In this document: positions 33,200-52,027 of the stretch, in pieces
Position numbering within the stretch: position 1 is the first letter of the stretch
How the letters are laid out: the number at the start of each line of letters is the position of its first letter
NCBI GenBank assembly: GCA_020634015.1
Contig: JACKCN010000001.1
Location: forward strand, 569,727-633,726
Origin: Candidatus Delongbacteria bacterium
GTDB taxonomy: Bacteria > CAIWAD01
Reading direction: 5' to 3'
Length of the DNA: 64,000 nt
Notes under the pieces: generated by a model
The model's input: only the letters and a program-made list of their open reading frames with translations
What the model was told of the DNA's origin: nothing
Databases searched by the model: none
Position numbers and translations under genes: made by a program

Positions 33200-33200
33200 A

Positions 33201-33271
33201 CTGGGCTGCAGGGATTCGAACCCCGATAGCTGGAACCAGAATCCAGAGTCCTACCATTGGACGACAGCCCA
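33201..33271 (-). tRNA. tRNA-Gln, anticodon CUG.
   Basis: Reverse complement: TGGGCTG TC GTCC AATGGTA GGAC T CTGGA TTCTGGT TCCAG CTAT CGGGG TTCGAAT CCCTG CAGCCCA G. Seven-bp acceptor stem with U1-A72 as in bacterial tRNA-Gln. Anticodon loop TT-CTG-GT. TTCGAAT T-loop. Confidence 0.85.
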
Positions 33272-33353
33272 ATCGATCTCACAGCAAGCCGCCAAATATA
33301 GGGGCGAATGCTGAAATGTCAAGGGCCTCAAGGTCTCGGCGCGGTGAAGTCGC

Positions 33354-35328: not shown

Positions 35329-35339
35329 CTTCTTCATCC

Positions 35340-36245
35340 ATGGATGCTGGCCTTGCGGCAGGCATGACGCCAGCGGAGGGCTGGCAGGCATGACGCCAGC
35401 GGAGGGTGCTGGCCTTGCAGCAGGCGTGACGCCAGCCGTGGATGCTGGCCTTGCAGCAGGCGTGACGCCAGCCGTGGATGCTGGCCTTGCAGCAGGCGTG
35501 ACGCCAGCCGTGGATGCTGGCCTTGCAGCAGGCGTGACGCCAGCCGTGGATGCTGGCCTTGCAGCAGGCGTGACGCCAGCGGAGGATGCTGGCCTTGCAG
35601 CAGGCATGACGCCAGCGGAGGGTGCTGGCCTTGCAGCAGGCATGACGCCAGCGGAGGGTGCTGGCCTTGCAGCAGGCGTGACGCCAGCGGAGGATGCTGG
35701 CCTTGCAGCAGGCGTGACGCCAGCGGAGGGTGCTGGCCTTGCAGCAGGCATGACGCCAGCGGAAGGGGCTGGCATGGCAGCAGGTGTTATGCCAGCGGAG
35801 GGTGCTGGCCTGGCAGCAGGCTTGACGCCAGCCGTGGATGTTGGCCTTGCAGCAGGCATGAAACCAGCCGTGGATGTTGGCCTTGCAGCAGGCGTGGAGA
35901 CAGCGGTGGGTGCTGGCCTTGCAGCAGGCGTGACGCCAGTGGAGGGTGCGGGCGTGGCAGCAGGCATGACGCCAGCGGAGGGTGCTGGCCTTGCAGCTGG
36001 CATGACGCCAGCGGAGGGTGCTGGCCTGGCAGCAGGCGTGACGCCAGCCGTGGATGCTGGCCTTGCAGCAGGCATGACGCCAGCGGAGGATGCTGGCCTT
36101 GCAGCAGGCATGACGCCAGCGGAGGGTGCTGGCCTTGAAGCAGGCGTGACGCCAGCCGTGGATACTGGCCTTGCAGCAGGCATGAAGCCAGCGGAGGATG
36201 CTGGCCTGGCAGCAGGCGTGACGCCAGCGGCGAAGTTGGCCTGGT
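35340..36245. repeat. 36-bp tandem repeat array of about 25 copies. It is open in frame on both strands, giving AGVTPAVDAGLA on + and TPAARPASTAGV on -.
   Basis: Consensus unit is GCAGGCGTGACGCCAGCCGTGGATGCTGGCCTTGCA. Copies differ at a few positions (GTG/ATG, GCC/GCG, GTG/GAG, GAT/GGT). Track ORFs 35225-36253 (+) and 35248-36183 (-) are both products of this array. Neither has a signal peptide. Both show GC3 near 50%. Confidence 0.8.
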
Positions 36246-39200
36246 TTACTTGAGCAGGATCATCTTGGCCGTCTGACTGAAGCCATTGGACCCAGGAAGG
36301 TCCTGGTCAACCGTCATGCGATACAGATAGACACCGCTTGCAGCCGAAGCAGCATCCCAGGAAAAGCCATGGCTGCCCGCGCTCAGCACCTGGTCTGCCA
36401 GGCTGGCCACTTCCTGCCCACGCAGATTGTATACTTTGAGGGAGACCGCTGCGGACCGGGGAAGCTGAATATCAATGCGGGTCCGAGGATTGAAGGGATT
36501 GGGATAGTTCTGTCCCAACTCGAAGCGGGCTGGCAACTCGGATTCTTCCCGCACATCCGTGGAAGAAGACCTGACATCGATCCAGTTCAGGTTGAACTGC
36601 CCGACATGAAGTCCCACATGCATGATCTGCTCACCGGCAGCCAGAAAGACATCCGGGATCTGCAGTTCCTGCCAGAACTGCCAGCCACCCGTCACCGGAA
36701 CGGGCACCAGCCCCGTCAGGTCCACACCGTTGACCTCAATGTGCAGACTGCCTCCACCAGGGACGGAAGAAACGGATGGCACCAGGGCATACATGCCCGC
36801 TTCCGCCACCTCGATCGTGTACTCCAGCCACTCCCCATCCTCAATCCAGCCGATGTCGTAGCCCCCGCCTTGATCATTGGATGCCTCGATGTCAACACCT
36901 TCGGTGCTGCGGAAAGGCACTCCGAGGTTCATCGCATCCACGTCGTGATAGGCCACCCCCTCGCCGCCTTCATCGTAGAACTCTGCCTGGATCAGTCCGG
37001 GAATCTGGAATGGAGTTCCCAGGTAGGGCGTCCCATTCTCAAGCACAGTGATCGAGACACTGTCTGAAGACGAGATGTTGAGATTGTTGGTAACGGCAAG
37101 GGAAACGGTATACGTTCCTGTTTCGGTGAAGACATGCTCGACATCAGGCGCTTGTGATGTGTCTCCGTCCCCAAAATCCCACGCATGGCTGAGCGGGGAA
37201 TCATTGGGATCAAAACTGTTGCTTCCGGTGAACAAGACACTCAATGGAGCCTTCCCGGATGTTCTGCTCGGCAACAACAAGGCCACCGGGGAATCCGGAT
37301 CCACGGGTGAGGTGCTGAAAGCCGCCGTCTGGTGTGGGCCCACCAGCAGGGAGAAGCCGTCCGAGAACGTCACCATCCGCTCCTGGGATCCGGCATTGAA
37401 AGCGACGTAGGTCAGATGGCCCGCGGGATCCCTGAAAACGGAGTACGTCGGAATATCTGCAGCAATGGCGGTTTCCACCTGCCCCATCTTTTTCAGATTG
37501 TACAACCAGTGGTATGTATGCGCACGGGACTCGCCATCGAAGGGTTCATACTCGATGTCTGCGTGATACAGCGTCACTGCCAGATCCGGATCTGACAGTG
37601 CCAGGTACTCCCAGAGGATATCCTGCCAGACAGTCGGTTCCCCGTTCCGTTCGGAAACAACTTCGGCGTAGTTGTCCAAGACATAGGCTGGATTCCTTCC
37701 CAGATACAGGGAGCCGCTTGTGACAGGAAGCATGTTGATTCCGTGGATGAACTCGGGTTCAGCGCCGAACCAGGTGGAATGCACGCCCTTTCCGCCCCAG
37801 ACCATGCCGATCGCCGTGTGCGGATAATCCTGGGGAAACACCTCGTTGTCCACATCGAACCAGTAGTGGTCCACGGCGGATGCCTCGTTGGCATGCAGGA
37901 AGATGCCCAGGTCACGGATCTCCGGCTGATTGGTGATCTCCCCCCAGAGGACGACCGCAGAAGCGAAGTTCATCGATTCTGAACTGGATTCCTGATTGTT
38001 GCCCTCCGCAAAGTCGCCATGGCCGGCCGCCCAGGAATGCCCGGCATAGGCATCAAAGGTTCTCAGAAATGGGAACTCTGTATCACTGCGATCCCAGTTG
38101 TCACAATCCTTGATCAGCAGATTCACCATTCCTCCCCACTGACTCGGGGAGGCCCAGGCACTGTCGAACTGCGCAATGGTCGCGGCGCTCATGATGGCGT
38201 AACTGGCATGAAAGTGATGATCATTGATCTGGTCGTCCGCCCCGAATCCGGAGGGATACCCTGTGAGCACATCCCAATTCTCGTCATAGGAGTACTCCTG
38301 CGAGCCGCCCACCGTGAACAAATCCTCCAACCGGACTTTGACCTCATCCAGAAAGTGGTCACGCTCAGCCGTGGCACCAAGCTGGTCGGCGATCTGAGCC
38401 AGATGCGCGAAGCGCGCCATCGCCTTTCCGTTTTCGTAAGTCGGTTCGATGGACAGAGTTTCGCCCGCCACGTCCTGCACATGGTTCAGAAGCACCGTGC
38501 GGTTGTAGTTTCCTTGATCGGGCAGGGCGGGCAGTATTCCGGAAAACTGCAGTTCGGTCGTGAAGGAATTGCCCTCGAGCAATTTCATGGTCCCACGCGG
38601 AGAGTGATAGGTATGGTTCAGCAGCGGGCTGTCCGTATTGAGCCATTGATGCCGATACAGCGCGGTCAAGGTCTGATTCACATTGGTCGCGAAACTGTCT
38701 CTCAGTACGGTCTCATAGGTATAGGTATTCGTGAGCCGCGAGGACGACTCGTCGTACTGCCACTCGATGCGGCTGTCCGTCACGAAAGCGTAGGCGTGGC
38801 TGCGAAACAGCTCAAGCGTCGCCGGACTCGTGTCGGGAAGCAGCGCAACGGAGAGATAATCCTTGCCGTCCAGAGTCGACTGGAAGGTGCTGGTTCCGGA
38901 CCATGTCGAGCCTGTCGGCGCGAAAACACCGTAGTGCTTGCCGCTGATCGTGATCCCCAGTACTTCATTCTGATTGTACCAGATCACGGGAGTCTGTGCG
39001 CTTGCAACAACCGCATTGCCGCCGGTGATTCTGAAGAACGCCCAGGGAAGTCCGTGTCCCAGAGTGGCTTCCATGGATATCGGCCCATCTTCCCACAGAG
39101 CCGTGACTGTCCAATCCCCATAGTGATGGGTCAGTGTCTGGACAGCTGACAATCCGGCAACGCCAATGGTCAGCTGGGCAGCATATGGATACAGAAAATC

Positions 39201-39554
39201 ATCGGCTGCGTAGAGATGATCGGTTGTGTATCCGATTTCCAGACCACTTGAGACGGCCTTGAAATTCAAGGGGTGTGCGTACAGAATGTTGGAGTACGAA
39301 GAGCCGAAGAAGGGGTAAATCAGGCTGCTCCAGAAATCGTTGGTTTGAACAGGCTGGTCAAATGCTGCGGATACTTTCGGAGTCGCATCCGCGCCATTGA
39401 AATTCCGTGGCCCCACTCCACCGGGTGGCAAGGACGTGCTGTAACTTCCAAGGCCAACCGGAACGGATTGTCCGGCAGCGCTCGCAGAATACAGGCAGAT
39501 CAGGAACAAGGATCCAATACTCTGTTTGACTGATTTCAACGCATTCACATTCAT
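36246..39554 (-). CDS. Secreted GH81 endo-beta-1,3-glucanase with PKD and CBM6-like domains and a T9SS CTD.
   Basis: Signal peptide MNVNALKSVKQSIGSLFLICLYSASAAG. GH81 signatures (INDHHFHASY, NNQESSSESMNFASA). PKD domain (SHAWDFGDGDTSQAPDVEHVFTETGTYTVSLAVTN). CBM6-like beta-sandwich. C-terminal NYPNPFNPRTRIDIQL...GVYLYRM. Confidence 0.85.
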   Translation of the reverse strand: MNVNALKSVKQSIGSLFLICLYSASAAGQSVPVGLGSYSTSLPPGGVGPRNFNGADATPKVSAAFDQPVQTNDFWSSLIYPFFGSSYSNILYAHPLNFKAVSSGLEIGYTTDHLYAADDFLYPYAAQLTIGVAGLSAVQTLTHHYGDWTVTALWEDGPISMEATLGHGLPWAFFRITGGNAVVASAQTPVIWYNQNEVLGITISGKHYGVFAPTGSTWSGTSTFQSTLDGKDYLSVALLPDTSPATLELFRSHAYAFVTDSRIEWQYDESSSRLTNTYTYETVLRDSFATNVNQTLTALYRHQWLNTDSPLLNHTYHSPRGTMKLLEGNSFTTELQFSGILPALPDQGNYNRTVLLNHVQDVAGETLSIEPTYENGKAMARFAHLAQIADQLGATAERDHFLDEVKVRLEDLFTVGGSQEYSYDENWDVLTGYPSGFGADDQINDHHFHASYAIMSAATIAQFDSAWASPSQWGGMVNLLIKDCDNWDRSDTEFPFLRTFDAYAGHSWAAGHGDFAEGNNQESSSESMNFASAVVLWGEITNQPEIRDLGIFLHANEASAVDHYWFDVDNEVFPQDYPHTAIGMVWGGKGVHSTWFGAEPEFIHGINMLPVTSGSLYLGRNPAYVLDNYAEVVSERNGEPTVWQDILWEYLALSDPDLAVTLYHADIEYEPFDGESRAHTYHWLYNLKKMGQVETAIAADIPTYSVFRDPAGHLTYVAFNAGSQERMVTFSDGFSLLVGPHQTAAFSTSPVDPDSPVALLLPSRTSGKAPLSVLFTGSNSFDPNDSPLSHAWDFGDGDTSQAPDVEHVFTETGTYTVSLAVTNNLNISSSDSVSITVLENGTPYLGTPFQIPGLIQAEFYDEGGEGVAYHDVDAMNLGVPFRSTEGVDIEASNDQGGGYDIGWIEDGEWLEYTIEVAEAGMYALVPSVSSVPGGGSLHIEVNGVDLTGLVPVPVTGGWQFWQELQIPDVFLAAGEQIMHVGLHVGQFNLNWIDVRSSSTDVREESELPARFELGQNYPNPFNPRTRIDIQLPRSAAVSLKVYNLRGQEVASLADQVLSAGSHGFSWDAASAASGVYLYRMTVDQDLPGSNGFSQTAKMILLK

Positions 39555-39833
39555 CTGAGCAGTTCCATTGATGGTGCGGACATCATTGCTGGGCACGGGT
39601 CTGCGATTCTTGTTGCGATATGCCCACAACATCCTTGGTTGAGTCGCGACCGCCCAGTCTAGCAGTTTCGGTTGACCTGCCTCGAAACATTGAAGATACA
39701 GGCGGCGACGCGAGTGGATCACATCACTTAAATCAGACCACAGGCTGGTCCATCCGGCAAGCCTGCTTCATGGAATGGAAAGCCCCGCCTGCAGGATTGC
39801 AGACGGGGCTTTGCTCGAACTGAGACCAGCTTC

Positions 39834-42800
39834 CTACTTGATCAGCATCATCTTGCCGACCGAATCGAAGAGGCTGCGCCCGTCGGCGGACGCCACGTGG
39901 ATCCGGTAGAAGTAGACACCGCTCGAGAGGCTGCTGCCGTCAAAGATCACATCGTGGGTGCCGGCGGGGCGCATGCCGCTCACCAGACTCTGCATGTGCT
40001 GACCCAGCATGTTGTAGACATCCAGGCTCACCAGTCCCTGCTCGGGAAGGGCATAGCGGATCACGGTGCTGGGGTTGAAGGGGTTGGGATAGTTGCTTTC
40101 GAGGGCCCAGGCCGTCGGCAGACGCAGGGCGTCACGCTGGACATCCGTGGTCTGGCAGGGAGCCGTGTACTCTTCCACCGGGTGCGCGAGGCCATTGGTC
40201 CAGCCCACGAACAGGCGTCCATCATCACTCAGTGCCAGACCATGAGCTTCGCTGAGTCCGCTGGGGCAGAAATCGCCACGCGCATCCACGCTGCCGTCTC
40301 CCAGATCAAGGAAGCACTCCAGATACCCGGTGCCCACGTGCAGGGCCACCAGCTGATCGGAGCCTTCGTTGTAATCCAGACCGGCCGCGCCGCTGCCACC
40401 GGCTTCCGACCAGGGAACGGGAATCACGTCCAGTCCAATCGGGTTGGCCGCGTCGGACACGTCAAGGCGCACGAATTCATCAATCGCACCATTGCTGCAG
40501 ATGGCCCAGAGGACCTCGCCATCCTCGTCGAAGGCCAGGCCCGTGGGCATGCGACCGGTCGCCACATCGAGAAGGGCCGGGGTGTGGGCGCCGATCAGCG
40601 CACCGCTGGCGCTCACATGTGAGACGCCACCACTCCAGGAAACCCAGAAACTGCCATCGCGGGAATCATGGGCAATGCCCGAGTAGTCGTGTCCGATGGG
40701 CAGAACGAAAATGCTGCCGACCACGCCGGTATCGCTGTCTTCCATCACCATTCTGTTCACTCCGCTGGCCAGCCAGACCAGAGTGTTGGCATCGATCCAG
40801 TCACCGTCGCTGAGATGATCCATGCCGAACAGGCCGTTGCCATTCACGTTCTGGATCAGCTGGGCCGTGTGGCTGCAGCTTGCGGCGGTCAGGATCTCGA
40901 CCGTATCGAAGGCCGTGTCGTCTTCGGTGGACTCAACCGTCAGCAGCACCAGATCCGTGAAGCTGGCCGGCACTTCCGGCACATGCACGCGCACACCCAG
41001 GTCAAAGAGATCCTCGTACTGCATCACGGGCAGGGCGGTGATCTCGGCCCAGTCGGCATTGATGTCGTGGAAGGTCACATCCCAGGCATTGCCTTCGCTG
41101 ACAAGTGAGAAGGCGCTGGCATTGTCACCGCGGTTCTCGACTTCCAGTTCGTATTCGGCGTAGCCACCGGTCAGGCCAACGCCCTGAAGATTGTCGGGGC
41201 GCACGCGCACGGCGTAGGGGCCCGAGGGACCGATCACATTGAAACCGAACCAGATCGCGCTCTGGTCGTGCGGCAACCAGCCCTGACCGTCGAAACTGGC
41301 GCTGAAGCCCTGTCCACCGCTGGCGTCTTCCTGGCCAATCGTGCAACTGAGGATGTCCAGTGGCGCCAACAGGGTGTCGTAGTTGATCCGGACGGCTTCC
41401 TCGTTGCTGTCGAGAATCACCTGGGCCGTGATCTGTCCGGTGCCTCCGTACTCGAAGACCTGATCGAAAGTCACGATGAACATGCCGTCCTGGCTGCCGT
41501 AGGTCACTGTGCCGCCCGTGGCAGGGTTCAGGTCATCCCAGAAGAAGGACACGACACCATTGGGCGTGGCGGCATTGGGCAGTTGCTGGTTGGCCAGCGA
41601 GGTCAATCCGGTGGGATCGAAGGCGATCGAGCCATTGGAGGCGATGTAGACCTCGGTGTACTCCACACCATAGTGCGTCCAGGGGAAGCCGATCTCGAAG
41701 GGGCCGACGAAACTGTCGTCCGTCAGCGTGACGGGGTTTGGATTCTCGATCGTGACCCAGTCGTACTCCACCGCCCCATCGGCATCGCTGGTGGACCAGA
41801 AATAGCCCCCGGCATCGGGTCCGCCCTGGACCAGCACGATGGTCAGCAGCACCACGGTTTCGTCGCTGCGGTTGCCATCGCCCTGGCTGGTGGCCGTGAC
41901 GGTGATCGTGGCATTGGGCTGAGCCGGATTCTCGGGAATGGTCAGCTCAAGTTCGATTTCCTGGGAGTCGCCGACGGCGACGCTCGGGGTCACGTTGCTC
42001 AGCTCGCCATTGATCAGGATATCCACTTCCACGCCGTTGTCGGCCGTGGCCTGAATCACGAAGGAATCGGGCAGCAGCCCCTGGTTGAACACGTCCAGGA
42101 AGGCACTCACCTGGCTGTCGGCAGGTCCGGTGGCGGTCACGCCGTCCTCGAGGGCCACGAAGTAGTTCGGCGGTGGCGAAAGCTCGAAGCGCAGGGTCAA
42201 GTCGTCGGAGGGGAGCCAGGGCTCGCCATCCAGTACGACCTGGATCCCATCCTCGCCCGTGTAATCCTCGATACCGATGGTGCAGGAGGTCACGTCCAGT
42301 GGCGCCACCAGCGCATCGTAATTCAGGAAGATCTGGTCATTGTCGAAATCGAAGACCACCTGGGCCCGCACGGTGCCCGTGCCCCCGTACTCCACCACGG
42401 CATCGTAGGTGATCACGAAACGGCCATCACCATCGGTGCCGTAGTACACCGAACCACCCGAACCCGGGTTGAGGTCATCCCAGAACAGTGCGATGATCCC
42501 GTTGGGAACACCCGCCGTGGGAATGGCCGTGTTGCTGAGACTGGTCATGCCCGCAGCATCGAATCCGATCATGCCATTGCTGCCGACGTAGATCTGGGTC
42601 TGGGGCGTGCCATAGAAACCGATCGTGCCGTTCATGTCGAAGGGGCCGGCCACACTGTCGTCCGTGAGTGTCACGGGAGTGCGGTCCTGCGGATCCAGCT
42701 CCACGAAGAAGTATGGTGTTCCGTTGGGGTCGGCCGAGCTGTACCACGTGTTGCCGAAGCTGTCGGACCCATTGGTGGTCACCACCAACACGGTGGATTG

Positions 42801-44024
42801 CATGCTCTCCGAGATCTGGTCGTCGCCCTGGGAGGTGGCGGTCACCGTGATCGCCTCACTCTGGCCGCCCATGTTTCCGCCCACCGTGACAGCCAGGCGG
42901 AATGTGGTCAGCTCCAGGGAGTTCACCGGTCCCACGGAACTGATCGGATTGCCTTCCATGTCCTGCAGCTGATAGTCGAAGAGATCGTCACCCGAGAAGG
43001 ACAGGTCGTAACTGTCGGTGATCAGGCCGGCATTGCCCACCGTGAAGGTGGCGGTCACCGTGTTGTCCGAGGCGGCCTGGATCTGGGCCGGTCCGCTCAG
43101 GTCCAGCGCGAACTGGGGCGGCGGGGCCAGATCGAAGCGCACGCTGGTCTGGGCAGTCGGCAGGAAGGGCGCCGAGTTGTAGATCACCTGAAGCCCGTCG
43201 GTGCCCGTGGGATCCTCGATGCCGATGGTGCAGGAGCTCAGGTCGATGCCCCCATCGAATGAGTCGTAATTGCAGTAGATGGCCGAGTTGTCGAAGTCCA
43301 GCACCACCTGTGCCACGAGGGTACCATCGCCCGCCAGACGGCTGATGCCATCGTAGGTCAACACGAAGTCATTGCCGACCATGCCATAGTAGATCTGCCC
43401 GCCGTCCGGGGGATACAGATCGTCCCAGAACAGGGCCACCAGATTGTCGGGAGTGGTGGCTGCGGGCAAGGTCTGGTTGGTGTAGGTGTTCATTGCGGTG
43501 CCGGAGAAACCCAGGATGCCGTTGGCACCGATCCAGGCCTGGGTATAGGACACACCGTAGTAACTGATCACGCCACCCAGATCCACGGGACCGGCCACGC
43601 CATCGTCGGTCAGCGTCAGGTAGTTGCGGTCGGCTTCGTCAATGGTCAGCCAGGTGTAGTCGGGGCCGCCCTCATCCCCGGTCATGATCCAGCTGTTGCC
43701 GAATGCGTCGGGGCCCCCCTCGTCCGTCTGCTGGCCCGGCCCCTTGTGAATGATGGGGGTTTCCGCGTCCAACAGCCCTTTCTCGCCCAGTGTCAGCGAC
43801 TCGCCCATCCGGAATCGGTAGTGCAGAAGACTTTCGCCGGGCAGATGACCGGCCTGGCCCTGGCGCTTGGCCAGTTCTTCCGCGGAAAGCTGCACGCCGG
43901 AATCGGCGGCCGAAGCCTTGAGCTCCAGTTCCTTGTCCATGGATGTCCTGGTCGTGGCGGACCATGCCGGGGACAGCATCAAGGTCCCCAGGAGCGCGAC
44001 GGCGCTCGTTCTTCCAATTCGCAT
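39834..44024 (-). CDS. Giant secreted T9SS cargo protein (1396 aa). Four copies of an unrecognised ~290-aa module, then a propeller-like region and CTD.
   Basis: Signal peptide MRIGRTSAVALLGTLMLSPAWSA. Modules are marked by GGPDAFGN(S/T)W, LTDD(S/G)xAGP(F/V)D(M/L)G, YYG(V/T)xYT(Q/E)xYIG(S/A)NG, ALFWDDL(N/Y)P, SSCTIGIED and RF(D/E)L(A/S)PPP. C-terminal NYPNPFNPSTVIRY...GVYFYRIHV. Confidence 0.85.
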   Translation of the reverse strand: MRIGRTSAVALLGTLMLSPAWSATTRTSMDKELELKASAADSGVQLSAEELAKRQGQAGHLPGESLLHYRFRMGESLTLGEKGLLDAETPIIHKGPGQQTDEGGPDAFGNSWIMTGDEGGPDYTWLTIDEADRNYLTLTDDGVAGPVDLGGVISYYGVSYTQAWIGANGILGFSGTAMNTYTNQTLPAATTPDNLVALFWDDLYPPDGGQIYYGMVGNDFVLTYDGISRLAGDGTLVAQVVLDFDNSAIYCNYDSFDGGIDLSSCTIGIEDPTGTDGLQVIYNSAPFLPTAQTSVRFDLAPPPQFALDLSGPAQIQAASDNTVTATFTVGNAGLITDSYDLSFSGDDLFDYQLQDMEGNPISSVGPVNSLELTTFRLAVTVGGNMGGQSEAITVTATSQGDDQISESMQSTVLVVTTNGSDSFGNTWYSSADPNGTPYFFVELDPQDRTPVTLTDDSVAGPFDMNGTIGFYGTPQTQIYVGSNGMIGFDAAGMTSLSNTAIPTAGVPNGIIALFWDDLNPGSGGSVYYGTDGDGRFVITYDAVVEYGGTGTVRAQVVFDFDNDQIFLNYDALVAPLDVTSCTIGIEDYTGEDGIQVVLDGEPWLPSDDLTLRFELSPPPNYFVALEDGVTATGPADSQVSAFLDVFNQGLLPDSFVIQATADNGVEVDILINGELSNVTPSVAVGDSQEIELELTIPENPAQPNATITVTATSQGDGNRSDETVVLLTIVLVQGGPDAGGYFWSTSDADGAVEYDWVTIENPNPVTLTDDSFVGPFEIGFPWTHYGVEYTEVYIASNGSIAFDPTGLTSLANQQLPNAATPNGVVSFFWDDLNPATGGTVTYGSQDGMFIVTFDQVFEYGGTGQITAQVILDSNEEAVRINYDTLLAPLDILSCTIGQEDASGGQGFSASFDGQGWLPHDQSAIWFGFNVIGPSGPYAVRVRPDNLQGVGLTGGYAEYELEVENRGDNASAFSLVSEGNAWDVTFHDINADWAEITALPVMQYEDLFDLGVRVHVPEVPASFTDLVLLTVESTEDDTAFDTVEILTAASCSHTAQLIQNVNGNGLFGMDHLSDGDWIDANTLVWLASGVNRMVMEDSDTGVVGSIFVLPIGHDYSGIAHDSRDGSFWVSWSGGVSHVSASGALIGAHTPALLDVATGRMPTGLAFDEDGEVLWAICSNGAIDEFVRLDVSDAANPIGLDVIPVPWSEAGGSGAAGLDYNEGSDQLVALHVGTGYLECFLDLGDGSVDARGDFCPSGLSEAHGLALSDDGRLFVGWTNGLAHPVEEYTAPCQTTDVQRDALRLPTAWALESNYPNPFNPSTVIRYALPEQGLVSLDVYNMLGQHMQSLVSGMRPAGTHDVIFDGSSLSSGVYFYRIHVASADGRSLFDSVGKMMLIK

Positions 44025-44303
44025 GACGGTCTCCTTGGCAGACGATTTCCCAGCACCGGTTTCCGTGAAACCAGCCCATGGGACGGAATACTGATGAACG
44101 ACGTGAGTTCAGTCACGGCAGGTGGCGACTCGGCAGGAACACCGCTGATCGCGGGAGAACCGTTCCTGCTTCATTCCGGGCGCTCAATATAGCAGGTCAG
44201 CTCGGGCATTGGCGACCATTCAAGCTACCGGAAAACTGTCGCCCCCGAACAGAAACGGCCCCGGAAGATTCCGGGGCCGTCTGGTTCGGGACAGATGTCA
44301 GGA

Positions 44304-47300
44304 CTACTTCAGCAGGATCATCTTGCCCGTGTCACTGAACAGCGAACTGCCATTCAGATCGGTGACCTGGATCCGGTAGAAATAGACACCGCTGGCCAGC
44401 GAGGCGCCGTCGAAACGGACCTCGTGATAACCTGCGGGACGCAGGCCATCAACCAGTACCTGCTGGTGCTGGCCGACCAGGTTGTACACATCCAGGCGCA
44501 CCTTGCCCTGCTCGGGCAGTCCGTAGCGGATCATGGTGGCCGGATTGAAGGGATTGGGATAGTTGCTGCCCAGTTCGAAGTCGACCGGCAGGCGCAGCGC
44601 ATCGCGGTCGATGGCGGTCACGGCGCAGGGAACCATGTACTCTTCCACAGGGTGCGCCAGACCGCTGGTCCAACCCACGAAGAGCCGGCCGTCGTCCGTC
44701 AACGCAAGGCCGTGGGCATCGGTGAGTCCGCTCGGGCAGAAATCACCACGGGCATCCACGGTGCCATCGCCCAGATCCAGGAAACACTCCACCGTGCCGG
44801 ATCCCGTGTGCAGGGCGACCAGCTGGTCGGAGCCTTCATTGTAGTCCAGACCCGCGGAACCGCTTCCGCCCGGGGTACTCCAGGGCACGATCATGGCGTT
44901 CAGCCCGACAAGGTTGGTGGCGTCGGACACATCCATGCGCACGAACTCGTCCACGGCGCCATTGGCACAGATCGCCCAGAGGATTTCGCCCTCGGAGTCG
45001 AAGGCCAGACCCGACGGCACGCGTCCGGTACCCGCATCCAGCAGAGCCGGGGAGAAGGCATTGATCAGGGCGCCCCCGATGGTCACATGGGAGATGCCAC
45101 CCACATAGCTGACCCAGAAACTGTTGTCACGGGAATCGTGGGCAATGCCCATGTAGTCATGCCCGAAAGGCAGGGCCACGATGTCTCCCACTGCGCCGGA
45201 CTCCGTGTCCTCCATCACCATGCGGTTGACGTTGGTGCCCAGCCAGGCGATCGTCTCACCTTCGACCCAGTCACCATCCATCAGGTGTTCCATGCCGAAC
45301 AGACCGTTGCCGTTGATGTTCTGATGCAGCTGGGCCGTATGGCTGCAGCTGCTGGCGGTCAGGATCTGGGCGTCGTCGCTGGCCGTCTCATCTTCCGTGG
45401 AGACCACGGTCAGGTGAACCAGGTCCGTGAAGCTGGCCGGCTCCTCGGGCACGTGCACGCGCACACCCAGGTTGAAGACGGTATCGAAGGCCATCTCGGG
45501 CACTTCGGTGATCTCGGCCCAGTCGTCGTCAATGTCGTGGAAGGTCACATCCCAGACGTTGCCTTCGGTCTCGAGCGTGAAGGCACTGGGGTTCTCACCA
45601 CGGTTCTCCACTTCAAGCTCGTACTCAGCATACCCACCCGTGATGCCCACACCCTGCAGGTTGTCGGGGCGCACGCGCACGGCGTAGGGACCGCTGGGGC
45701 CGATCACGTTGAATCCGAACCAGATCGAGGCATTGTCGTGAGGCAGCCAGCCCTGGCCATTGTAACAGGCGCTGAAGCCCTGGTTGCCGCCAGCATCTTC
45801 CTGACCGATGGTGCAGCTCAGGATGTCCAGAGGTGCGGCCAGAGTCTGGTAATTGATGCGTACGGCTTCTTCGTTGCTGTCCAGGATCACCTGGGCCGTG
45901 ATGCGTCCCTGGCCGCCGAACTCGAAGACCTGATCGAAGGTCACGATGAACATGCCGTCCTGTGAGCCATAACTCACGGTGCCGCCCGCGGTCGCGGGAT
46001 TGAGGTCGTCCCAGAAGAAGGAGATGACACCGTTGGGCGTGGCGACATTGGGCAGCTGCTGATTGGCCAGCGAGTTCAGGCCGGTCGGGTCGAAACCGAT
46101 GGAGCCGTTGGACGCGATGTAGACCTGCGTGTACTCCATGCCGTAATGGGTCCAGGGGAAACCGATCTCGAAGGGACCCGCCGAGCTGTCATCGGTCAGA
46201 GTCGCGGTCGTGGGATTGTCGATGGTGACCCAGTCGTATTCGACCACGCCGTCCGCATCGGTGGTGGACCAGAAATATCCTCCGCCATCGGGGCCGCCCT
46301 GAACCAGCACGATGGTCAGCAGGGCCGTGGTCTGATCCGTGCGCGACGCGTCTCCCACGCTGACGGCGTTCACCGTGATGGTGGAATTGGCACCGCCGGG
46401 CACTTCGGGAATCGTCAGCACCAGATCAAAGGTGAAACTGGCTTCGGGCTGGATCACGGGAGTCTGGTTGCCCGGATTGCCGTTGATCAGGATGTCGACC
46501 TCGATGCCGTTGTCCGCGCTGGCGCTCAGGACATAGGCATCCTGCAGCAGGCCGATGTTGCTGATGTCCATGGGCACGGACACTTCACTGTCGGCGGCTC
46601 CCACGGCAGTCACACCATCCTCCAGGCTGGGCCAGAAGTCCGGGGGCGGGGGCAGTTCGAAGCGCAGGGTCATTTCCTCGAAGGGAGTCCAGGGGGCGTT
46701 GTTGTAGACGACCTGGGCCGCATCCGTGCCATCGTAGTTCTCGATGCCGATGGTGCAGGAGGTGAGATCGATGGGTGCGTTGAACTGGTCGTAGTTCAGG
46801 AAGATGAAGTCGTTCTCGAAATCGAATACCACCTGGGCCCGGAAGGTGCCCGTGCCGGAATACTCGAACACACCATCATAGGTGATCACGAAGTAACCTT
46901 CGGTGCTGGTTCCGTAGTACACCTGTCCGCCGGTTCCCGGATTCAGGTCATCCCAGAACAGTGCGATGACACCATTGGGAGCCGTCGTGGACGGCATGTT
47001 CTGGTTGGCCAGGGTGGTCATGCCAGCGGCGGCAAAGCCCACCATGCCGTTGCTGCCGATGTAGATCTGGTTCTGGGGCACGCCGTAGAAGTTGATCGAG
47101 GCACCCATGTCGAAGGGCCCGGCCGAACTGTCGTCCGTCAGGGTCACAGCGGTACGATCCTGCGGATCCAGTTCCACGAAGAAGAAGTCGGTTCCGTCGG
47201 GATCCAGGTTGCTGTACCACTCGTTGCCGAAGGAATCGCTGCCCGAGGTGGCGATCACATTGACCGTCGGGTTGAGGGTGATGAAGGTGTTGTCATCGGC

Positions 47301-50300
47301 CTGGGACGTGGCCGTGAGACTGACCGTTTCGGACTGCCCCCCCATGTCGGCCGGGACCGTCACCACCAGCTGGATTTCCTCGAGGGTCAGCGGCGCCAGC
47401 GGCCCCACACTGCTGATCTCGTTGCCTTCCATGTCCTGGATGGCGTAGGTGAACAGCGAACCGCCGCTCAGCGTCAGGTCGTAACTGTCGGAGGCCAGAC
47501 CCGAGTTGCTGAGGGTGAAGGTGCCGGCCACCACGTTGTTCGAAGACGCCTGGATCAGCGTGGGACCGGTGAATTCCATCTGGAAGTCGGGAGGTGGCGC
47601 CAGATCGAAGCGAATCGTCCAGTTGGCCAGCGGCTGGGCGGGCGTGCCGTTGTAGATCACGGTCAGGCCGTCGGTGCCGGTGGAGTTCTCGATGCCGATG
47701 GTGCAGCTGCTCAGGTCCAGCCCATCCAGACTGGCGTAGTTGCAGAACACCTGCTGGGTGGCGAAGTCGATCACGACCTGGGCCGTCAGCAGTCCCACAC
47801 CACCGGTCTCGGGCACGTCGGCATAGGTCACCACCATGCGGCCATCGACATCATTGCCGTAGGACACCGTGCCTCCGCCGCCGGGATTCATGTCATCCCA
47901 GAACAGCGCGATCAGGCCACTGGGGGTGGTGGCGCTGGGCAGGTTCTGATTCACGGTGGAGGTCATGCCCACATTGCTGAAGCCGATCATGCCGTTGGAA
48001 CCGATGTAGAACTGGGTCTGGGCTTCTCCGTAGTAACTGAGCACACCATTCAGCGGGAAGGGCCCGGCGACCGAGTTGCTGGCGAGCGTCACCAGAGTCG
48101 CATCCTCGACGTCCACCCAGAAGTACTGCTGATCACCACCGGCGCTGGAAACCCAGGCATTGCCATAGGCATCCGGCCCACCAGCGGCCGCATTGAAGAT
48201 CGAGGTGCTCACGGGCAGCAGGTAACTCACATCGGAATTGACCGACTCGATGCTGACCTGGGAAGCGTCGATGGTCGTGGGCGCCTCGGCATCCACAAAG
48301 CCCGCCAACTGGATCGTGATGCTTTCCAGCGGCTGCAGCACACCCGTGTTGCCCACCGGGCTGCCATTGAGCTGGATCGTCCAGTCCACGAGATCTTCAA
48401 AGGAAATGTTCAGGTCATAACTGTCGGGAAGCAGACCCGCGTTGGTGATGGTGAACTCTTCCAGCAGATTGCCCGCCGGACCACCTGTGGTATTGATGGT
48501 CAGCGGTGACACACCAACGGCGTAATCAGGGGGCGGAGCCAGGTCGAAACGAAGGGTCCACTGCTCCAGCGGAGAGGCCGGCGTGTTGTTGTAGATCACC
48601 TGCAGTCCGTCCGTGCCCGTGGCATTCTCGATGCCGATGGTGCAGCTGGTGATGTCCAGCGGGGCGGTCAGGGCTTCATAATTGTAGAAGATCTGCGATT
48701 CGGCGAAGTCGTACACCACCTGAGCGGTCAGGGTGCCCGTACCGGAATACTCGGAGACCGCATCGTAGGTCACGACGAAACGCCCATCCACGGTGCCGCA
48801 GTACACCTGGCCACCGGAGGACGGATTCATGTCGTCCCAGAACAGGGGCATGATGTTGTTGGGAGCGGCGGCATTGGGAATGGCCACATTGCCCAGGCTG
48901 TTCAGCGAGGTGGAGGTGAAGGCCAGGTTGCCGTTGCTGCCGATATACAGCTCGGTATACGGATCCCCGTAGTAACTGATCACCGACCCCATGTCGAAGG
49001 GACCGGCGAAGGAGTCGTCCGTGAGTGTCACATAGGTGCGGTCTTCTTCGGGGATGTCCACCCAGAAGTATTCCTGATCACCCCCGGCGCTGGATACCCA
49101 GGTATTGCCGAACGCATCGGGGCCACCGGCGGCACCGTTGAAGATCGCTGTGTTCAGCGCCACACTGGCGGTGGCGTCGGAGTTCACCGATTCGAAGGTC
49201 AGTGTGGCATTGTCCGTGCCCGTGGGTGCGTTCTCATCGATGGTGCCCACCACGTCCACGGTGGTGGAGGCACCCGGGTCCAGGGGACCGATGGTGGAGA
49301 CGGGGTTGCCGTTGACGAAGGTGCCCCAGGCGACCACACCGGGAGCACTGAGGCTCAGGTCATAGCTGTCCGCCAGATTGCCGCCATTGGTGATGGTGAC
49401 GCTGCCCGCGATCTCATCGCTGGGGCCCCCGTTGAAGCCCAGTGCGCTGGTGTCCAGAAAGATCAGGTAGTCGGGAGGCGGTGCCAGATCGAAACGCACG
49501 GTGGTCTGATTGGCAGGCACCTGTGCTGCGTTGTTGTAGGCCAGCTGCAGACCGTCCGTGCCCGTTTCGTTCTCGATGCCGATGGTGCAGCTTGTCTGAT
49601 CGATGCCGTTTGCCAAGGCTTCGTAATTGAAGTAGACGGCGGGGCCGTCAAAATCGATCACGATCTGCGCCGTCAGGGTTCCGGGGCCACTGGAGTACTC
49701 GTTGACCGCATCGTAGGTGATCACGAAGTCCCCGTCCACCGTGCCCGTATACACCTGGCCACCCGTGGCGGGATTCATGTCATCCCAGAACAGCGACAGC
49801 AGGGCATTGGGATTGGCCAGACTGGGAATGGCCACATTGCCCAGATTGTTCAGCGAAGTGCCCAGAAACCCCACGTTGCCATTGGAGCCCACATAGATTT
49901 CGCTGTAGTCCACGCCGTAGAAACTCAGGGTTCCGCCCATGTCCAGCGGACCCACGAAGGAATCGTCGGTAAGGGTCAGGTAATTGCGATCCACTTCGGG
50001 AATGTCGACCCACGCATACGCGGGCCCACCTTCGTCACCGGTCATGATCCAGGTGTTGCCCCAGGCGTCGGGTCCACCTTCGTCCGTGCCGTGTGACGGC
50101 CCCTTGTGGGAGATCTCGGCGGCCTGGTCTTCGAGCCACTGCTTCTCGACAGGGGTGAAATCTCCACCGTGTGCCAGTTTCCACTGGATGCGATCCTCCA
50201 GACTGAAGGCCTGATCCGCATCCAGTTTCTCCTGCTGCTCGCGCGTGCTCAGGGGAGTCGGCAGCTGTGATGCATCCAGACCGGGAGCGCTCACCAGCGT

Positions 50301-50528
50301 TGCAGTCGGGGTCGTTGCCGGTGTGGTCTCGACCGTCTTCGCCTTCAGCCGTGCGGCGGCCTGGTCGGCGACCTTCTCCGCCAGCTCGGCGGCGCTCAGC
50401 GTCTGTCCGGATGCGCGCAAAGCCGCATCCTTGTCCGCCTGTTCCGCGGGACTCAACCCGGACGCATGGGCAAGACTGCCCAGCATCAGGGCCAAGGCCA
50501 GCACTCCAATCGGTCGTGCCTGCTTCAT
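44304..50528 (-). CDS. Giant secreted T9SS cargo protein (about 2075 aa). Paralog of 39834-44024 with seven copies of the same module.
   Basis: Signal peptide MKQARPIGVLALALMLGSLAHA. An Ala/Glu/Lys-rich N-terminal region, then seven modules. The last module plus the C-terminal ~420 aa are about 80-90% identical to the paralog. C-terminal NYPNPFNPATMIRY...GVYFYRIQV. Confidence 0.85.
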   Translation of the reverse strand: MKQARPIGVLALALMLGSLAHASGLSPAEQADKDAALRASGQTLSAAELAEKVADQAAARLKAKTVETTPATTPTATLVSAPGLDASQLPTPLSTREQQEKLDADQAFSLEDRIQWKLAHGGDFTPVEKQWLEDQAAEISHKGPSHGTDEGGPDAWGNTWIMTGDEGGPAYAWVDIPEVDRNYLTLTDDSFVGPLDMGGTLSFYGVDYSEIYVGSNGNVGFLGTSLNNLGNVAIPSLANPNALLSLFWDDMNPATGGQVYTGTVDGDFVITYDAVNEYSSGPGTLTAQIVIDFDGPAVYFNYEALANGIDQTSCTIGIENETGTDGLQLAYNNAAQVPANQTTVRFDLAPPPDYLIFLDTSALGFNGGPSDEIAGSVTITNGGNLADSYDLSLSAPGVVAWGTFVNGNPVSTIGPLDPGASTTVDVVGTIDENAPTGTDNATLTFESVNSDATASVALNTAIFNGAAGGPDAFGNTWVSSAGGDQEYFWVDIPEEDRTYVTLTDDSFAGPFDMGSVISYYGDPYTELYIGSNGNLAFTSTSLNSLGNVAIPNAAAPNNIMPLFWDDMNPSSGGQVYCGTVDGRFVVTYDAVSEYSGTGTLTAQVVYDFAESQIFYNYEALTAPLDITSCTIGIENATGTDGLQVIYNNTPASPLEQWTLRFDLAPPPDYAVGVSPLTINTTGGPAGNLLEEFTITNAGLLPDSYDLNISFEDLVDWTIQLNGSPVGNTGVLQPLESITIQLAGFVDAEAPTTIDASQVSIESVNSDVSYLLPVSTSIFNAAAGGPDAYGNAWVSSAGGDQQYFWVDVEDATLVTLASNSVAGPFPLNGVLSYYGEAQTQFYIGSNGMIGFSNVGMTSTVNQNLPSATTPSGLIALFWDDMNPGGGGTVSYGNDVDGRMVVTYADVPETGGVGLLTAQVVIDFATQQVFCNYASLDGLDLSSCTIGIENSTGTDGLTVIYNGTPAQPLANWTIRFDLAPPPDFQMEFTGPTLIQASSNNVVAGTFTLSNSGLASDSYDLTLSGGSLFTYAIQDMEGNEISSVGPLAPLTLEEIQLVVTVPADMGGQSETVSLTATSQADDNTFITLNPTVNVIATSGSDSFGNEWYSNLDPDGTDFFFVELDPQDRTAVTLTDDSSAGPFDMGASINFYGVPQNQIYIGSNGMVGFAAAGMTTLANQNMPSTTAPNGVIALFWDDLNPGTGGQVYYGTSTEGYFVITYDGVFEYSGTGTFRAQVVFDFENDFIFLNYDQFNAPIDLTSCTIGIENYDGTDAAQVVYNNAPWTPFEEMTLRFELPPPPDFWPSLEDGVTAVGAADSEVSVPMDISNIGLLQDAYVLSASADNGIEVDILINGNPGNQTPVIQPEASFTFDLVLTIPEVPGGANSTITVNAVSVGDASRTDQTTALLTIVLVQGGPDGGGYFWSTTDADGVVEYDWVTIDNPTTATLTDDSSAGPFEIGFPWTHYGMEYTQVYIASNGSIGFDPTGLNSLANQQLPNVATPNGVISFFWDDLNPATAGGTVSYGSQDGMFIVTFDQVFEFGGQGRITAQVILDSNEEAVRINYQTLAAPLDILSCTIGQEDAGGNQGFSACYNGQGWLPHDNASIWFGFNVIGPSGPYAVRVRPDNLQGVGITGGYAEYELEVENRGENPSAFTLETEGNVWDVTFHDIDDDWAEITEVPEMAFDTVFNLGVRVHVPEEPASFTDLVHLTVVSTEDETASDDAQILTASSCSHTAQLHQNINGNGLFGMEHLMDGDWVEGETIAWLGTNVNRMVMEDTESGAVGDIVALPFGHDYMGIAHDSRDNSFWVSYVGGISHVTIGGALINAFSPALLDAGTGRVPSGLAFDSEGEILWAICANGAVDEFVRMDVSDATNLVGLNAMIVPWSTPGGSGSAGLDYNEGSDQLVALHTGSGTVECFLDLGDGTVDARGDFCPSGLTDAHGLALTDDGRLFVGWTSGLAHPVEEYMVPCAVTAIDRDALRLPVDFELGSNYPNPFNPATMIRYGLPEQGKVRLDVYNLVGQHQQVLVDGLRPAGYHEVRFDGASLASGVYFYRIQVTDLNGSSLFSDTGKMILLK

Positions 50529-50757
50529 GGTGCCTCCTGTCAAGAGTTCGCTCGTATGATACACTGTCTGATCGTTGCGGCCGACGGCCCCATTGCCCTT
50601 CTGGAAGGACTCCGGAAGGATGACTCGTACAAGGGGCCTTGCTGTGAAAACAAGGAAGTGCCGGGAAGATACTTTCCCCTGCCAACGGATGACAGCAAGA
50701 TTCCGCATTCGCTGAAGTTGAAGAAGAGGGTGCCGCTCTCTATCTTCAGGGCCTCTC

Positions 50758-50830
<73 letters not shown>

Positions 50831-50834
50831 TGAT

Positions 50835-50874
50835 GACAGAAAAGGGGCACCTCGCGGTGCCCCTTCTGTCTTTC
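50835..50874. terminator. Bidirectional rho-independent terminator.
   Basis: GACAGAAAAGGGGCACC-TCGC-GGTGCCCCTTCTGTC followed by TTTC. Long GC-rich stem between tRNA-Thr (+) and the convergent NYN-domain gene (-). Confidence 0.8.
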
Positions 50875-51869
50875 TAGCCAAGCAGTTCCTGCTCCTGGAT
50901 GACGATGTGCGTGGCAGCCCCGGCCTTGTGCTCGTCCGGTGGGCGCACGATGAAGAAACTCACCGGCAGCCCCATCAACTCATCCGAGAATTCCAGCCCC
51001 TCGTCCAGGTCGGTGTAATGGAAGAAGTAATCCTGGCCTGAATCGCTGGTGATGAACCCGAAGCCCTTGTCCAGCTTGATGGTCTTGATGGCGCCATGTA
51101 CTTCGGCGCCTTCTTCCAGTGCGCGCAGACGGTCCTGTTCGATCTCCTCGAACTGGCGCTGACGCTGGGTGTAACTGGGAGCGGGCGGACGGGAATCGCC
51201 GTAGGCCGCGGTGTCGGACTCGTACTCCTCGTGGCGACGCAGTTCGCGCTGGAGCTGGATCCGCGGCACCATGTCGTCCATCCAGAGGGTGTCGAAGTCG
51301 GCGACCAGACCCCTCTCCTGACTGGAGGTGAACTCGGGTGTGCAGCAATTGCGGATGCTGAGAATCGCGGTGCGCTTGCCGAAACGGCGTACGGCGCGGA
51401 TCGCGGGCTTGTAATCGCGGTCGCCAATCAGGAACACGCCGATGTCGAAGGCATGGTTGAAGGCGCACTGCAGGCTGGTGGCCGCCAGGGAAATCGCCGC
51501 CTGGCCTTCGCGCGGGTGAAAGGGATCGGTGGCCTCGCGGTCGCTGCGCCGGATGCGACGGCCCTTGAAGTTGACCGGATAGGTTTCCACGTGATAATAG
51601 AAGTCCTCGCGCATCCGGGTGTAAAAGTCCTTCTGGCGCTGCGAAAGCGCTTCGTCCAGCGGATCGACCTTCACCGGGAACGCGCCGAACATGTACCCAC
51701 GCACGAACTCGAGCGGCATTCCGGGATTCTGCTCGTTGAGGTCTTCCAGAATGGCGTCGGTCAGTTTCTGGAAGTCGACCTGATAATGACGGTCTTCGGT
51801 GTAATCGAGCAGGCGGGACATGTTCTGATAGAACCACGTGCCATCGACAAACAGCATCACCTTGGCCAT
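50874..51869 (-). CDS. NYN (LabA-like, PIN-like nuclease) domain protein fused to a C-terminal cold-shock domain.
   Basis: Start MAKVMLFVDGTWFY with a GGAGG RBS. NYN acidic residues are present. C-terminal GAIKTIKLDKGFGFITSDSGQDYFFHYTDL is a CSD/S1-like RNP motif. Confidence 0.7.
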   Translation of the reverse strand: MAKVMLFVDGTWFYQNMSRLLDYTEDRHYQVDFQKLTDAILEDLNEQNPGMPLEFVRGYMFGAFPVKVDPLDEALSQRQKDFYTRMREDFYYHVETYPVNFKGRRIRRSDREATDPFHPREGQAAISLAATSLQCAFNHAFDIGVFLIGDRDYKPAIRAVRRFGKRTAILSIRNCCTPEFTSSQERGLVADFDTLWMDDMVPRIQLQRELRRHEEYESDTAAYGDSRPPAPSYTQRQRQFEEIEQDRLRALEEGAEVHGAIKTIKLDKGFGFITSDSGQDYFFHYTDLDEGLEFSDELMGLPVSFFIVRPPDEHKAGAATHIVIQEQELLG

Positions 51870-52027
51870 GATGTTCCTCCGGGGACTGATAAGGGTAGAT
51901 ACTTGCACTGCCGGCTGGGCTGTCGGACCAATCATAATGACGTTATCAAATCAATCGGACCCCCACCGGGAAGGCGCAAGGTTGCAGTTCCGGAGCGACT
52001 TTTCAACGGCGGCAGGACGTCACACGC

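Follow-up and report, generated by a model that had tools for sequence, protein, structure and literature searches.

The 64-kb window analysed here (64,000 nucleotides of contig JACKCN010000001.1 from a Candidatus Delongbacteria bacterium, numbered from its first letter) encodes two adjacent giant proteins, A and B, and raises the question of what their tandem modules are and what they do. The original prediction, made from the sequence alone, placed two neighbouring open reading frames (ORFs) here and read them as paralogous type IX secretion system (T9SS) cargo, built from four and seven copies of an unrecognised module of ~290 residues. Both ORFs were found where they had been placed, and their reading as giant paralogous T9SS cargo with tandem modules is supported by the unit identities, the sorting domains and the shared C-terminal part described below. 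The module itself is, judged from profile comparisons, a divergent bacterial NIDO-like domain with an N-terminal extension of ~40 residues, and we consider it moderately probable, by analogy, that A and B are T9SS-displayed multivalent adhesins or matrix binders acting through the repeated NIDO-like domains. The two genes, delimited from the ORF list and repeat hidden Markov models (HMMs), are:

39834..44024, minus strand: gene A, 1396 amino acids (aa), comprising a signal peptide, a linker, three units of NIDO-like domain plus spacer, a β-propeller and a T9SS C-terminal domain (CTD)
44304..50528, minus strand: gene B, 2074 aa, comprising a signal peptide, a linker, five units of NIDO-like domain plus spacer, a β-propeller and a T9SS CTD

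The motif positions and the domain calls of the repeat HMMs agree on three modules in A and five in B, instead of four and seven, and the repeat period measures 313-323 aa, longer than had been claimed. Each unit consists of a motif-bearing domain of ~205 aa and a spacer of ~110 aa with low sequence conservation. Inside the first ~205 aa, the motifs run in the order GGPDxxGNxW, TLTDD, SNG..GF, FWDDLNP, NY, SCTIGIE and RFDLAPPP. The eight modules share a pairwise identity of 30-82% over ~315 aa, far above chance. The expectation of one ordered motif set throughout holds in that the set was found in all eight modules, including the Cys of SCTIGIE (invariant in 8/8 copies), but several motifs occur as variants. 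Modules A2 and B4 possess GSDSFGNxW at the GGPDxxGNxW position, and both proteins close with a divergent unit, in which GGPDxGGYFW takes the place of GGPDxxGNxW and WFGFNVIGPSG that of RF(D/E)LxPPP. The units are arranged as follows, with the supporting evidence in brackets:

43116..43733, minus strand: A module 1, NIDO-like domain, aa 98-303 (motifs, HMM, alignment)
42789..43115, minus strand: A module 1, spacer, aa 304-412, probably an immunoglobulin (Ig)-like β-sandwich (HMM; Ig-type Pfam matches sub-threshold only)
42168..42788, minus strand: A module 2, NIDO-like domain, aa 413-619 (motifs, HMM; Pfam NIDO 23.0 bits alone)
41841..42167, minus strand: A module 2, spacer, aa 620-728 (HMM; Ig_VWA7 17.2 bits, below cut-off)
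41220..41840, minus strand: A module 3, NIDO-like domain, divergent, aa 729-935 (motifs, HMM)
40875..41219, minus strand: A module 3, spacer, aa 936-1050 (HMM)
49473..50093, minus strand: B module 1, NIDO-like domain, aa 146-352 (motifs, HMM)
49143..49472, minus strand: B module 1, spacer, aa 353-462 (HMM)
48528..49142, minus strand: B module 2, NIDO-like domain, aa 463-667 (motifs, HMM)
48198..48527, minus strand: B module 2, spacer, aa 668-777 (HMM)
47589..48197, minus strand: B module 3, NIDO-like domain, aa 778-980 (motifs, HMM)
47259..47588, minus strand: B module 3, spacer, aa 981-1090 (HMM)
46641..47258, minus strand: B module 4, NIDO-like domain, the modelled copy, aa 1091-1296 (Pfam NIDO 32.0 bits alone; AlphaFold)
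46314..46640, minus strand: B module 4, spacer, aa 1297-1405 (HMM)
45690..46313, minus strand: B module 5, NIDO-like domain, divergent, aa 1406-1613 (motifs, HMM; Pfam NIDO 19.5 bits alone)
45345..45689, minus strand: B module 5, spacer, aa 1614-1728 (HMM)

Profile search against Pfam revealed that protein B matches NIDO (PF06119) with an E-value of 3.7e-14 and 53.6 bits, compared to a gathering cut-off of 25 bits for this profile of 186 positions. Among the single modules, B4 alone exceeds the cut-off, followed by A2 and B5, whereas the other five modules scanned alone have no Pfam NIDO match. Relatives score up to 104 bits (P0106), with 60 bits for P0128 and 58 bits for P0114; in the S8 peptidase relative P0043 the match spans profile positions 2-174, and the orthologues P0028-P0036 are already tagged PF06119 in precomputed annotation. 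We count A as a NIDO protein by transitivity, because its modules are 52-82% identical, as whole units, to B modules 3-5. As an animal query we took the N-terminal region of human nidogen-1, in a sequence that matches the NIDO model along its full length with 207 bits and is 77-98% identical to database nidogen-1 entries. Alignment by hhalign of the module profile against this NIDO domain covers 103 columns, reaching up to about two thirds of the domain (E 3e-5, probability 73%), which run from the DD motif via FYG, SNG and FWDD to FQAVL. Independently of these matches, Bflower_3 (PF21786) hits the NIDO-like domain with 15-24 bits against a cut-off of 34, which was treated as noise from β-hairpin periodicity.

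The original prediction had mainly claimed a genuinely new domain family, unlike anything catalogued. That claim could draw on the five of eight modules that match nothing in Pfam when scanned alone, on NCBIfam, which has no model for the module, on the lack of a similar solved structure, and on the ~40-aa GGPDxxG(N/Y)xW segment, which lies outside the Pfam NIDO model and inside the predicted domain. However, B and many relatives exceed the curated NIDO cut-off, the series DD..F.FYG..Y..IY..SNG..F ... P ... FWDD ... FQAVL aligns with nidogen, and the domain recurs in ~38,900 representative clusters, many of them carrying the PF06119 tag. A new family is very improbable, and the Pfam matches of B, B4 and the relatives have largely refuted it.

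AlphaFold2 modelling of module B4 from a 26-sequence alignment yielded a confident, compact all-β domain that includes the N-terminal extension, with a predicted local distance difference test score (pLDDT) of 95.0 and a predicted template modelling score (pTM) of 0.92. Structural similarity search using Foldseek with this model gave nothing below E 0.47 among solved structures, and the PDB copies searched hold no NIDO structure; a weak fold resemblance to the galactose-mutarotase-like supersandwich was seen. At the sequence level, the eight-module profile had no match in the PDB, and a broadened profile had a sole one, namely residues 48-192 of 8gl6 chain D, deposited as RemA (E 7.3e-18). In 8gl6 the CTD alone is resolved (PMC10994853), so that it offers no experimental view of the NIDO-like domain.

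The supersandwich is catalytic in aldose epimerases, and this weak likeness, together with the Asn of SNG, the Asp-Asp of FWDD and the Glu of GIE, which are nearly invariant across distant relatives, would fit a catalytic NIDO-like domain that makes A and B multi-site surface enzymes. By contrast, neither Pfam nor NCBIfam gives any enzyme family match by sequence, the usual attachment partners of the domain are themselves catalytic, and the animal NIDO proteins are matrix proteins; we rate a catalytic role as highly improbable. A thioester or catalytic role for the Cys of SCTIGIE was rejected separately, as this residue is not kept in distant relatives, which carry Ala, Gly or Asn there.

The spacer is probably Ig-like, a fold suggested by sub-threshold Pfam matches only (Ig_VWA7, best E 1.5e-4; DUF11, FixG_C, Big_3 and fn3_5). 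It matched nothing in the PDB sequence search and no NCBIfam model, and hhalign detected no similarity between it and the HYDIN-type Ig segments of relatives.

The ends of both proteins carry the following features:

43959..44024, minus strand: A signal peptide, aa 1-22, MRIGRTSAVALLGTLMLSPAWS (inferred from sequence reading)
40095..40874, minus strand: A β-propeller, aa 1051-1310 (AlphaFold, Foldseek, HMM)
39837..40094, minus strand: A T9SS type A CTD, aa 1311-1396 (TIGR04183, 32.5 bits)
50463..50528, minus strand: B signal peptide, aa 1-22, MKQARPIGVLALALMLGSLAHA (inferred from sequence reading)
44565..45344, minus strand: B β-propeller, aa 1729-1988 (72% identical to the A propeller; same HMM)
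44307..44564, minus strand: B T9SS type A CTD, aa 1989-2074 (TIGR04183, 25.8 bits)

As predicted, both N-termini resemble Sec signal peptides, with a positive n-region, a hydrophobic core and an AxA-like site, as read by eye from the sequence. The linker of 75-123 residues that follows has no library match in either protein. The C-terminal region beyond the last unit is, according to the model, a six-bladed-type β-propeller; a shared propeller-like region had been expected here, and both the sharing and the fold were borne out, at a length of ~260 aa instead of ~420 aa. The AlphaFold model of the A propeller (pLDDT 80, pTM 0.82) has ~20 strands, and Foldseek relates it with a probability of 1.0 to the six-bladed Pizza6, Brat/Thin NHL and YjiK, with template modelling (TM) scores of 0.55-0.60 and E-values down to 1.4e-9. 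The Pfam NHL repeat scores 19.5 and 17.1 bits, under the cut-off of 20; the propeller fold class is thus supported, but assignment to NHL as a sequence family is not. The T9SS CTD, likewise predicted for both proteins, lies above the NCBIfam TIGR04183 cut-off of 23 bits in each, and Pfam Por_Secre_tail gives 24.4 (A) and 22.0 bits (B), under its cut-off of 27. Three consecutive CTD-bearing genes suggest a functional T9SS.

Gene A starts at the ATG at 44024, with AAGGAG ahead of it; the starts of both genes thus have a ribosome-binding site of the AGGAG type. The mechanical ORF of B covers 44304-50762, and its 5' end overlaps a tRNA gene:

50758-50830, plus strand: tRNA-Thr(CGT) gene, 230 bp upstream of gene B

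We therefore set B to 44304-50528, because the ATG at 50528 has AGGAGG ahead and encodes a typical signal peptide, whereas the longer ORF runs into tRNA-Thr. In the database, P0026 (NCBI, from a Candidatus Delongbacteria metagenome-assembled genome, MAG; 1368 aa) is identical to A but begins at Met29. It thereby lacks a signal peptide, which the upstream ATG at 44024 with its AAGGAG restores, so that the database start is probably wrong. P0027 is a partial copy of B, 99% identical. P0026 is publicly called “T9SS type A sorting domain-containing protein” and P0027 “hypothetical protein”, names that the lack of an NCBIfam model for the module explains. The taxon labels of these near-identical MAGs clash, P0026 being assigned to Candidatus Delongbacteria and P0027 to Calditrichaeota. 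Two further observations concern the tRNA genes: positions 50842-50865 form a hairpin with a T-rich tail behind it, and the window holds a second tRNA gene, Gln(CTG), at 33200-33272 on the minus strand.

Comparison of whole units pairs A1 with B3 (52% identity), A2 with B4 (64%) and A3 with B5 (82%), and the C-terminal parts are 72% (propeller) and 69% (CTD) identical, indicating that A is the equivalent of the last three units of B. The last 2 kb (3') of the two genes share 76% DNA identity with no long identical tract, which argues for an old duplication and against recent conversion.

An exhaustive profile search over 1.84 billion representatives (clusters at 50% identity) collected 38,857 proteins with the NIDO-like domain at E<=1e-3; the number at E<=1e-30 is 8,087. 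Giants of 2-5 thousand aa with up to 15 module copies are numerous among them. Among the best 148 representatives, at least three copies are present in 85 and a CTD-like domain, called by an ad hoc HMM, ends 76; the copies are most often spaced 400-450 aa or 300-350 aa apart. The lineages among the genome matches include Ignavibacteria, Calditrichia, Marinimicrobia, Cloacimonadota, Fibrobacteraceae, Krumholzibacteriia, Delongbacteria, WOR-3, Gemmatimonadetes, Saprospiraceae and others. On the same polypeptide the domain is joined to C25, S8 and M36 peptidases and to choice-of-anchor-D/HYDIN-type Ig domains. Co-occurrence with T9SS CTDs is frequent, and the partners within the polypeptide are peptidases and not glycoside hydrolases. 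P0114 and P0124 carry the same propeller as A and B. Literature search on bacterial NIDO, or on T9SS together with nidogen, found nothing relevant. We place A and B, as new members, in a large T9SS cargo class that is uncharacterised.

Starting from the gene structures, domain map, NIDO membership, propeller fold, CTDs, paralogy and wide distribution computed here, we infer surface anchoring, an extended geometry and a binding function for A and B. The signal peptide would direct Sec export, and the type A CTD would guide passage through the T9SS translocon, upon which the CTD would be removed and the protein tethered at the surface; partial release is possible as for RemA, since RemA-like cargo with a type A CTD is both anchored on the surface and released (PMC12618676). 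The β-propeller might sit beside the anchor as a base, from which three (A) or five (B) units, each a NIDO-like β-sandwich plus a spacer, would point outward as a chain, and the NIDO-like domains may bind a ligand, with glycan or protein matrix as candidates. We propose binding because the domain acts as an accessory or tandem module, occurs in RemZ/RemA and has no catalytic family matches, and because animal NIDO proteins are located in matrices. Its attachment to secreted C25, S8 and M36 peptidases and to HYDIN-type Ig proteins is likewise the usual behaviour of binding modules, and the tandem paralogue pairs or triplets conserved in related genomes may be counted for a binding role, by analogy.

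Both proteins are extremely acidic with very few Lys (Asp plus Glu 190 versus Lys plus Arg 39 in A, and 263 versus 47 in B), which may point to Ca2+ binding or to life in a saline habitat. This composition would also suit a structural surface coat, S-layer-like or made of spacer fibrils, in which the repeats give length and rigidity and bind no specific ligand. The highly repetitive architecture fits such a coat, as do the invariant residues, mostly Gly, Pro and aromatic and thus structural, and the module copy number, which is 3, 4 or 5 among orthologues. Nevertheless, the domain also occurs singly, appended to many different enzymes, a pattern more in keeping with a binding module than with a lattice former, and the polar residues of SNG, WDD and GIE are conserved family-wide; we regard a structural coat as unlikely.

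Several points weigh against reading A and B as T9SS-displayed NIDO adhesins. Scanned whole against Pfam, protein A gives no NIDO match at E<=1, the Pfam NIDO match in the modules of A and B covers positions 1-58 of 186 only, and hhalign against a nidogen-only alignment of 10 sequences is weak (probability 57%, E 1e-4). The novelty of the module is therefore only half removed, by a Pfam match that is partial and leads to a functionally uncharacterised domain. The putative T9SS assignment draws on the cargo genes in the 64-kb window. The lectin region of RemA is reportedly a different domain. For NIDO domains, whether animal or bacterial, neither a ligand nor a function has been established (bioRxiv 10.1101/2020.07.27.223107), and the binding role is argued by analogy.

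A wider proposal is that the bacterial NIDO-like domain is a distinct binding β-sandwich, remotely akin at most to the galactose-mutarotase supersandwich, whose arrays give bacteria of the Fibrobacteres-Chlorobi-Bacteroidetes (FCB) group multivalent attachment to a matrix of glycan or protein, and that the metazoan NIDO domain has its prokaryotic counterpart, and perhaps its origin, in it; we advance it tentatively and hold it to be rather doubtful. If true, A and B would be a tractable entry to NIDO function. The bacterial branch is very large, has a confidently predicted fold and is typically T9SS-displayed in tandem arrays or on secreted peptidases. Because these domains are so numerous and confidently modelled, soluble modules such as B4 would be convenient for solving a first structure by experiment and for screening ligands. 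The wider interest lies in the general question of what NIDO domains do, in nidogens, alpha-tectorin, mucin-4 and SNED1.

The neighbourhood of A and B bears on a further reading, suggested by the gene next to A:

36246-39722, minus strand: gene for a GH81-PKD-CBM6-T9SS CTD protein, directly downstream of A on the same strand

From this adjacency the original prediction proposed that A and B might form a polysaccharide-binding scaffold, here taken as one holding laminarin-type glucan for the neighbouring GH81 β-1,3-glucanase. The immediate, same-strand position of a gene that combines GH81, PKD, CBM6 and a T9SS CTD speaks for it. Against it, the syntenic locus of another MAG (L002) reads PTS enzyme I, NYN/cold-shock domain (CSD), two tandem paralogues (1720 and 2065 aa), MIP channel, PMT_2, MoaA and EamA; its flanks are those of the window, in which the GH81 gene and a 36-bp minisatellite occupy the MIP position. 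A second related locus (L001; JGI 3300056626 contig Ga0558126_00994, 1-15211) has three tandem paralogues of 1738, 1740 and 1736 aa with four NIDO-like units each and no glycoside hydrolase, so that the numbers of genes and of modules both vary between relatives. Moreover, the GH81 gene has a GC content of 0.565 and a GC content at third codon positions (GC3) of 0.67, whereas A, B and the flanking genes have a GC3 of 0.80-0.82. Its absence from both related loci and its deviant GC3 make the GH81 adjacency look like a later, laterally acquired insertion rather than a conserved partnership. As the domain is also joined to peptidases and not to glycoside hydrolases within polypeptides, a GH81 scaffold is distinctly unlikely. 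For this genome alone the gain is modest: the link to GH81 drops out, and two hypothetical or minimally named proteins acquire a domain-level annotation.

A promoter and terminator scan between the A, B and GH81 genes found nothing above shuffled expectation. The 36-bp tandem repeat at 35384-36230 comprises 23.5 copies with 89% matches and lies between the ends of the PMT_2-like gene (35328) and the GH81 gene (36246); it creates long ORFs on both strands, at 35225-36253 (plus) and 35248-36183 (minus). On the other flank, a gene for an NYN plus cold-shock-domain protein (50874-51935, minus strand) adjoins PTS enzyme I, a pairing kept in L002. Downstream of the paralogues in L001 lies a CapB/CapC-like gene pair of the poly-gamma-glutamate type.

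The first comparison is with the animal NIDO domain (PF06119/SMART SM00539) of nidogen-1/2, alpha-tectorin, mucin-4, SNED1, Drosophila Mesh and C. elegans DEX-1. These proteins all reside in extracellular or apical matrix, and no NIDO crystal structure existed when the SNED1 preprint was written (10.1101/2020.07.27.223107). Animal and bacterial copies share the motif order DD, F.FYG, SNG..F, P, (P/L)FW.D.(D/N), VYY and FQAVL, and both occur in extracellular multidomain proteins, probably as all-β domains, with a significant Pfam match. They differ in that the bacterial copies add the N-terminal GGPDxxG(N/Y)xW segment and that the first third of the Pfam profile alone aligns in A and B. Compared to the one or two copies of animal proteins, A and B have 3-5 tandem copies with spacers, and they are targeted by T9SS.

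RemA is a mobile surface adhesin. RemA and RemZ of Flavobacterium johnsoniae resemble A and B as large, secreted, surface-associated proteins with a type A CTD (PMC10994853, PMC12618676), and the N-terminal region of 8gl6_D (48-192) matches the module profile. However, they possess one significant profile match instead of 3-5 tandem copies, and the propeller of A and B was not seen there; the features in common with a RemA-type adhesin are a NIDO-like domain at the N-terminus and a type A CTD only.

A third comparison is with the giant multi-NIDO-like T9SS cargo proteins and peptidase-NIDO fusions of the FCB group (for example P0105, P0106, P0128 and P0114). Many of them have HYDIN/VesB-type Ig spacers (PF22544), which are not detectably similar to the spacer of A and B. 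Catalytic domains (S8, C25, M36), present in many of them, are missing from A and B. Nevertheless, they share the same domain, often in 3-15 copies, their spacings of 300-450 aa imply spacer domains between the copies, and the T9SS CTD is frequent among them.

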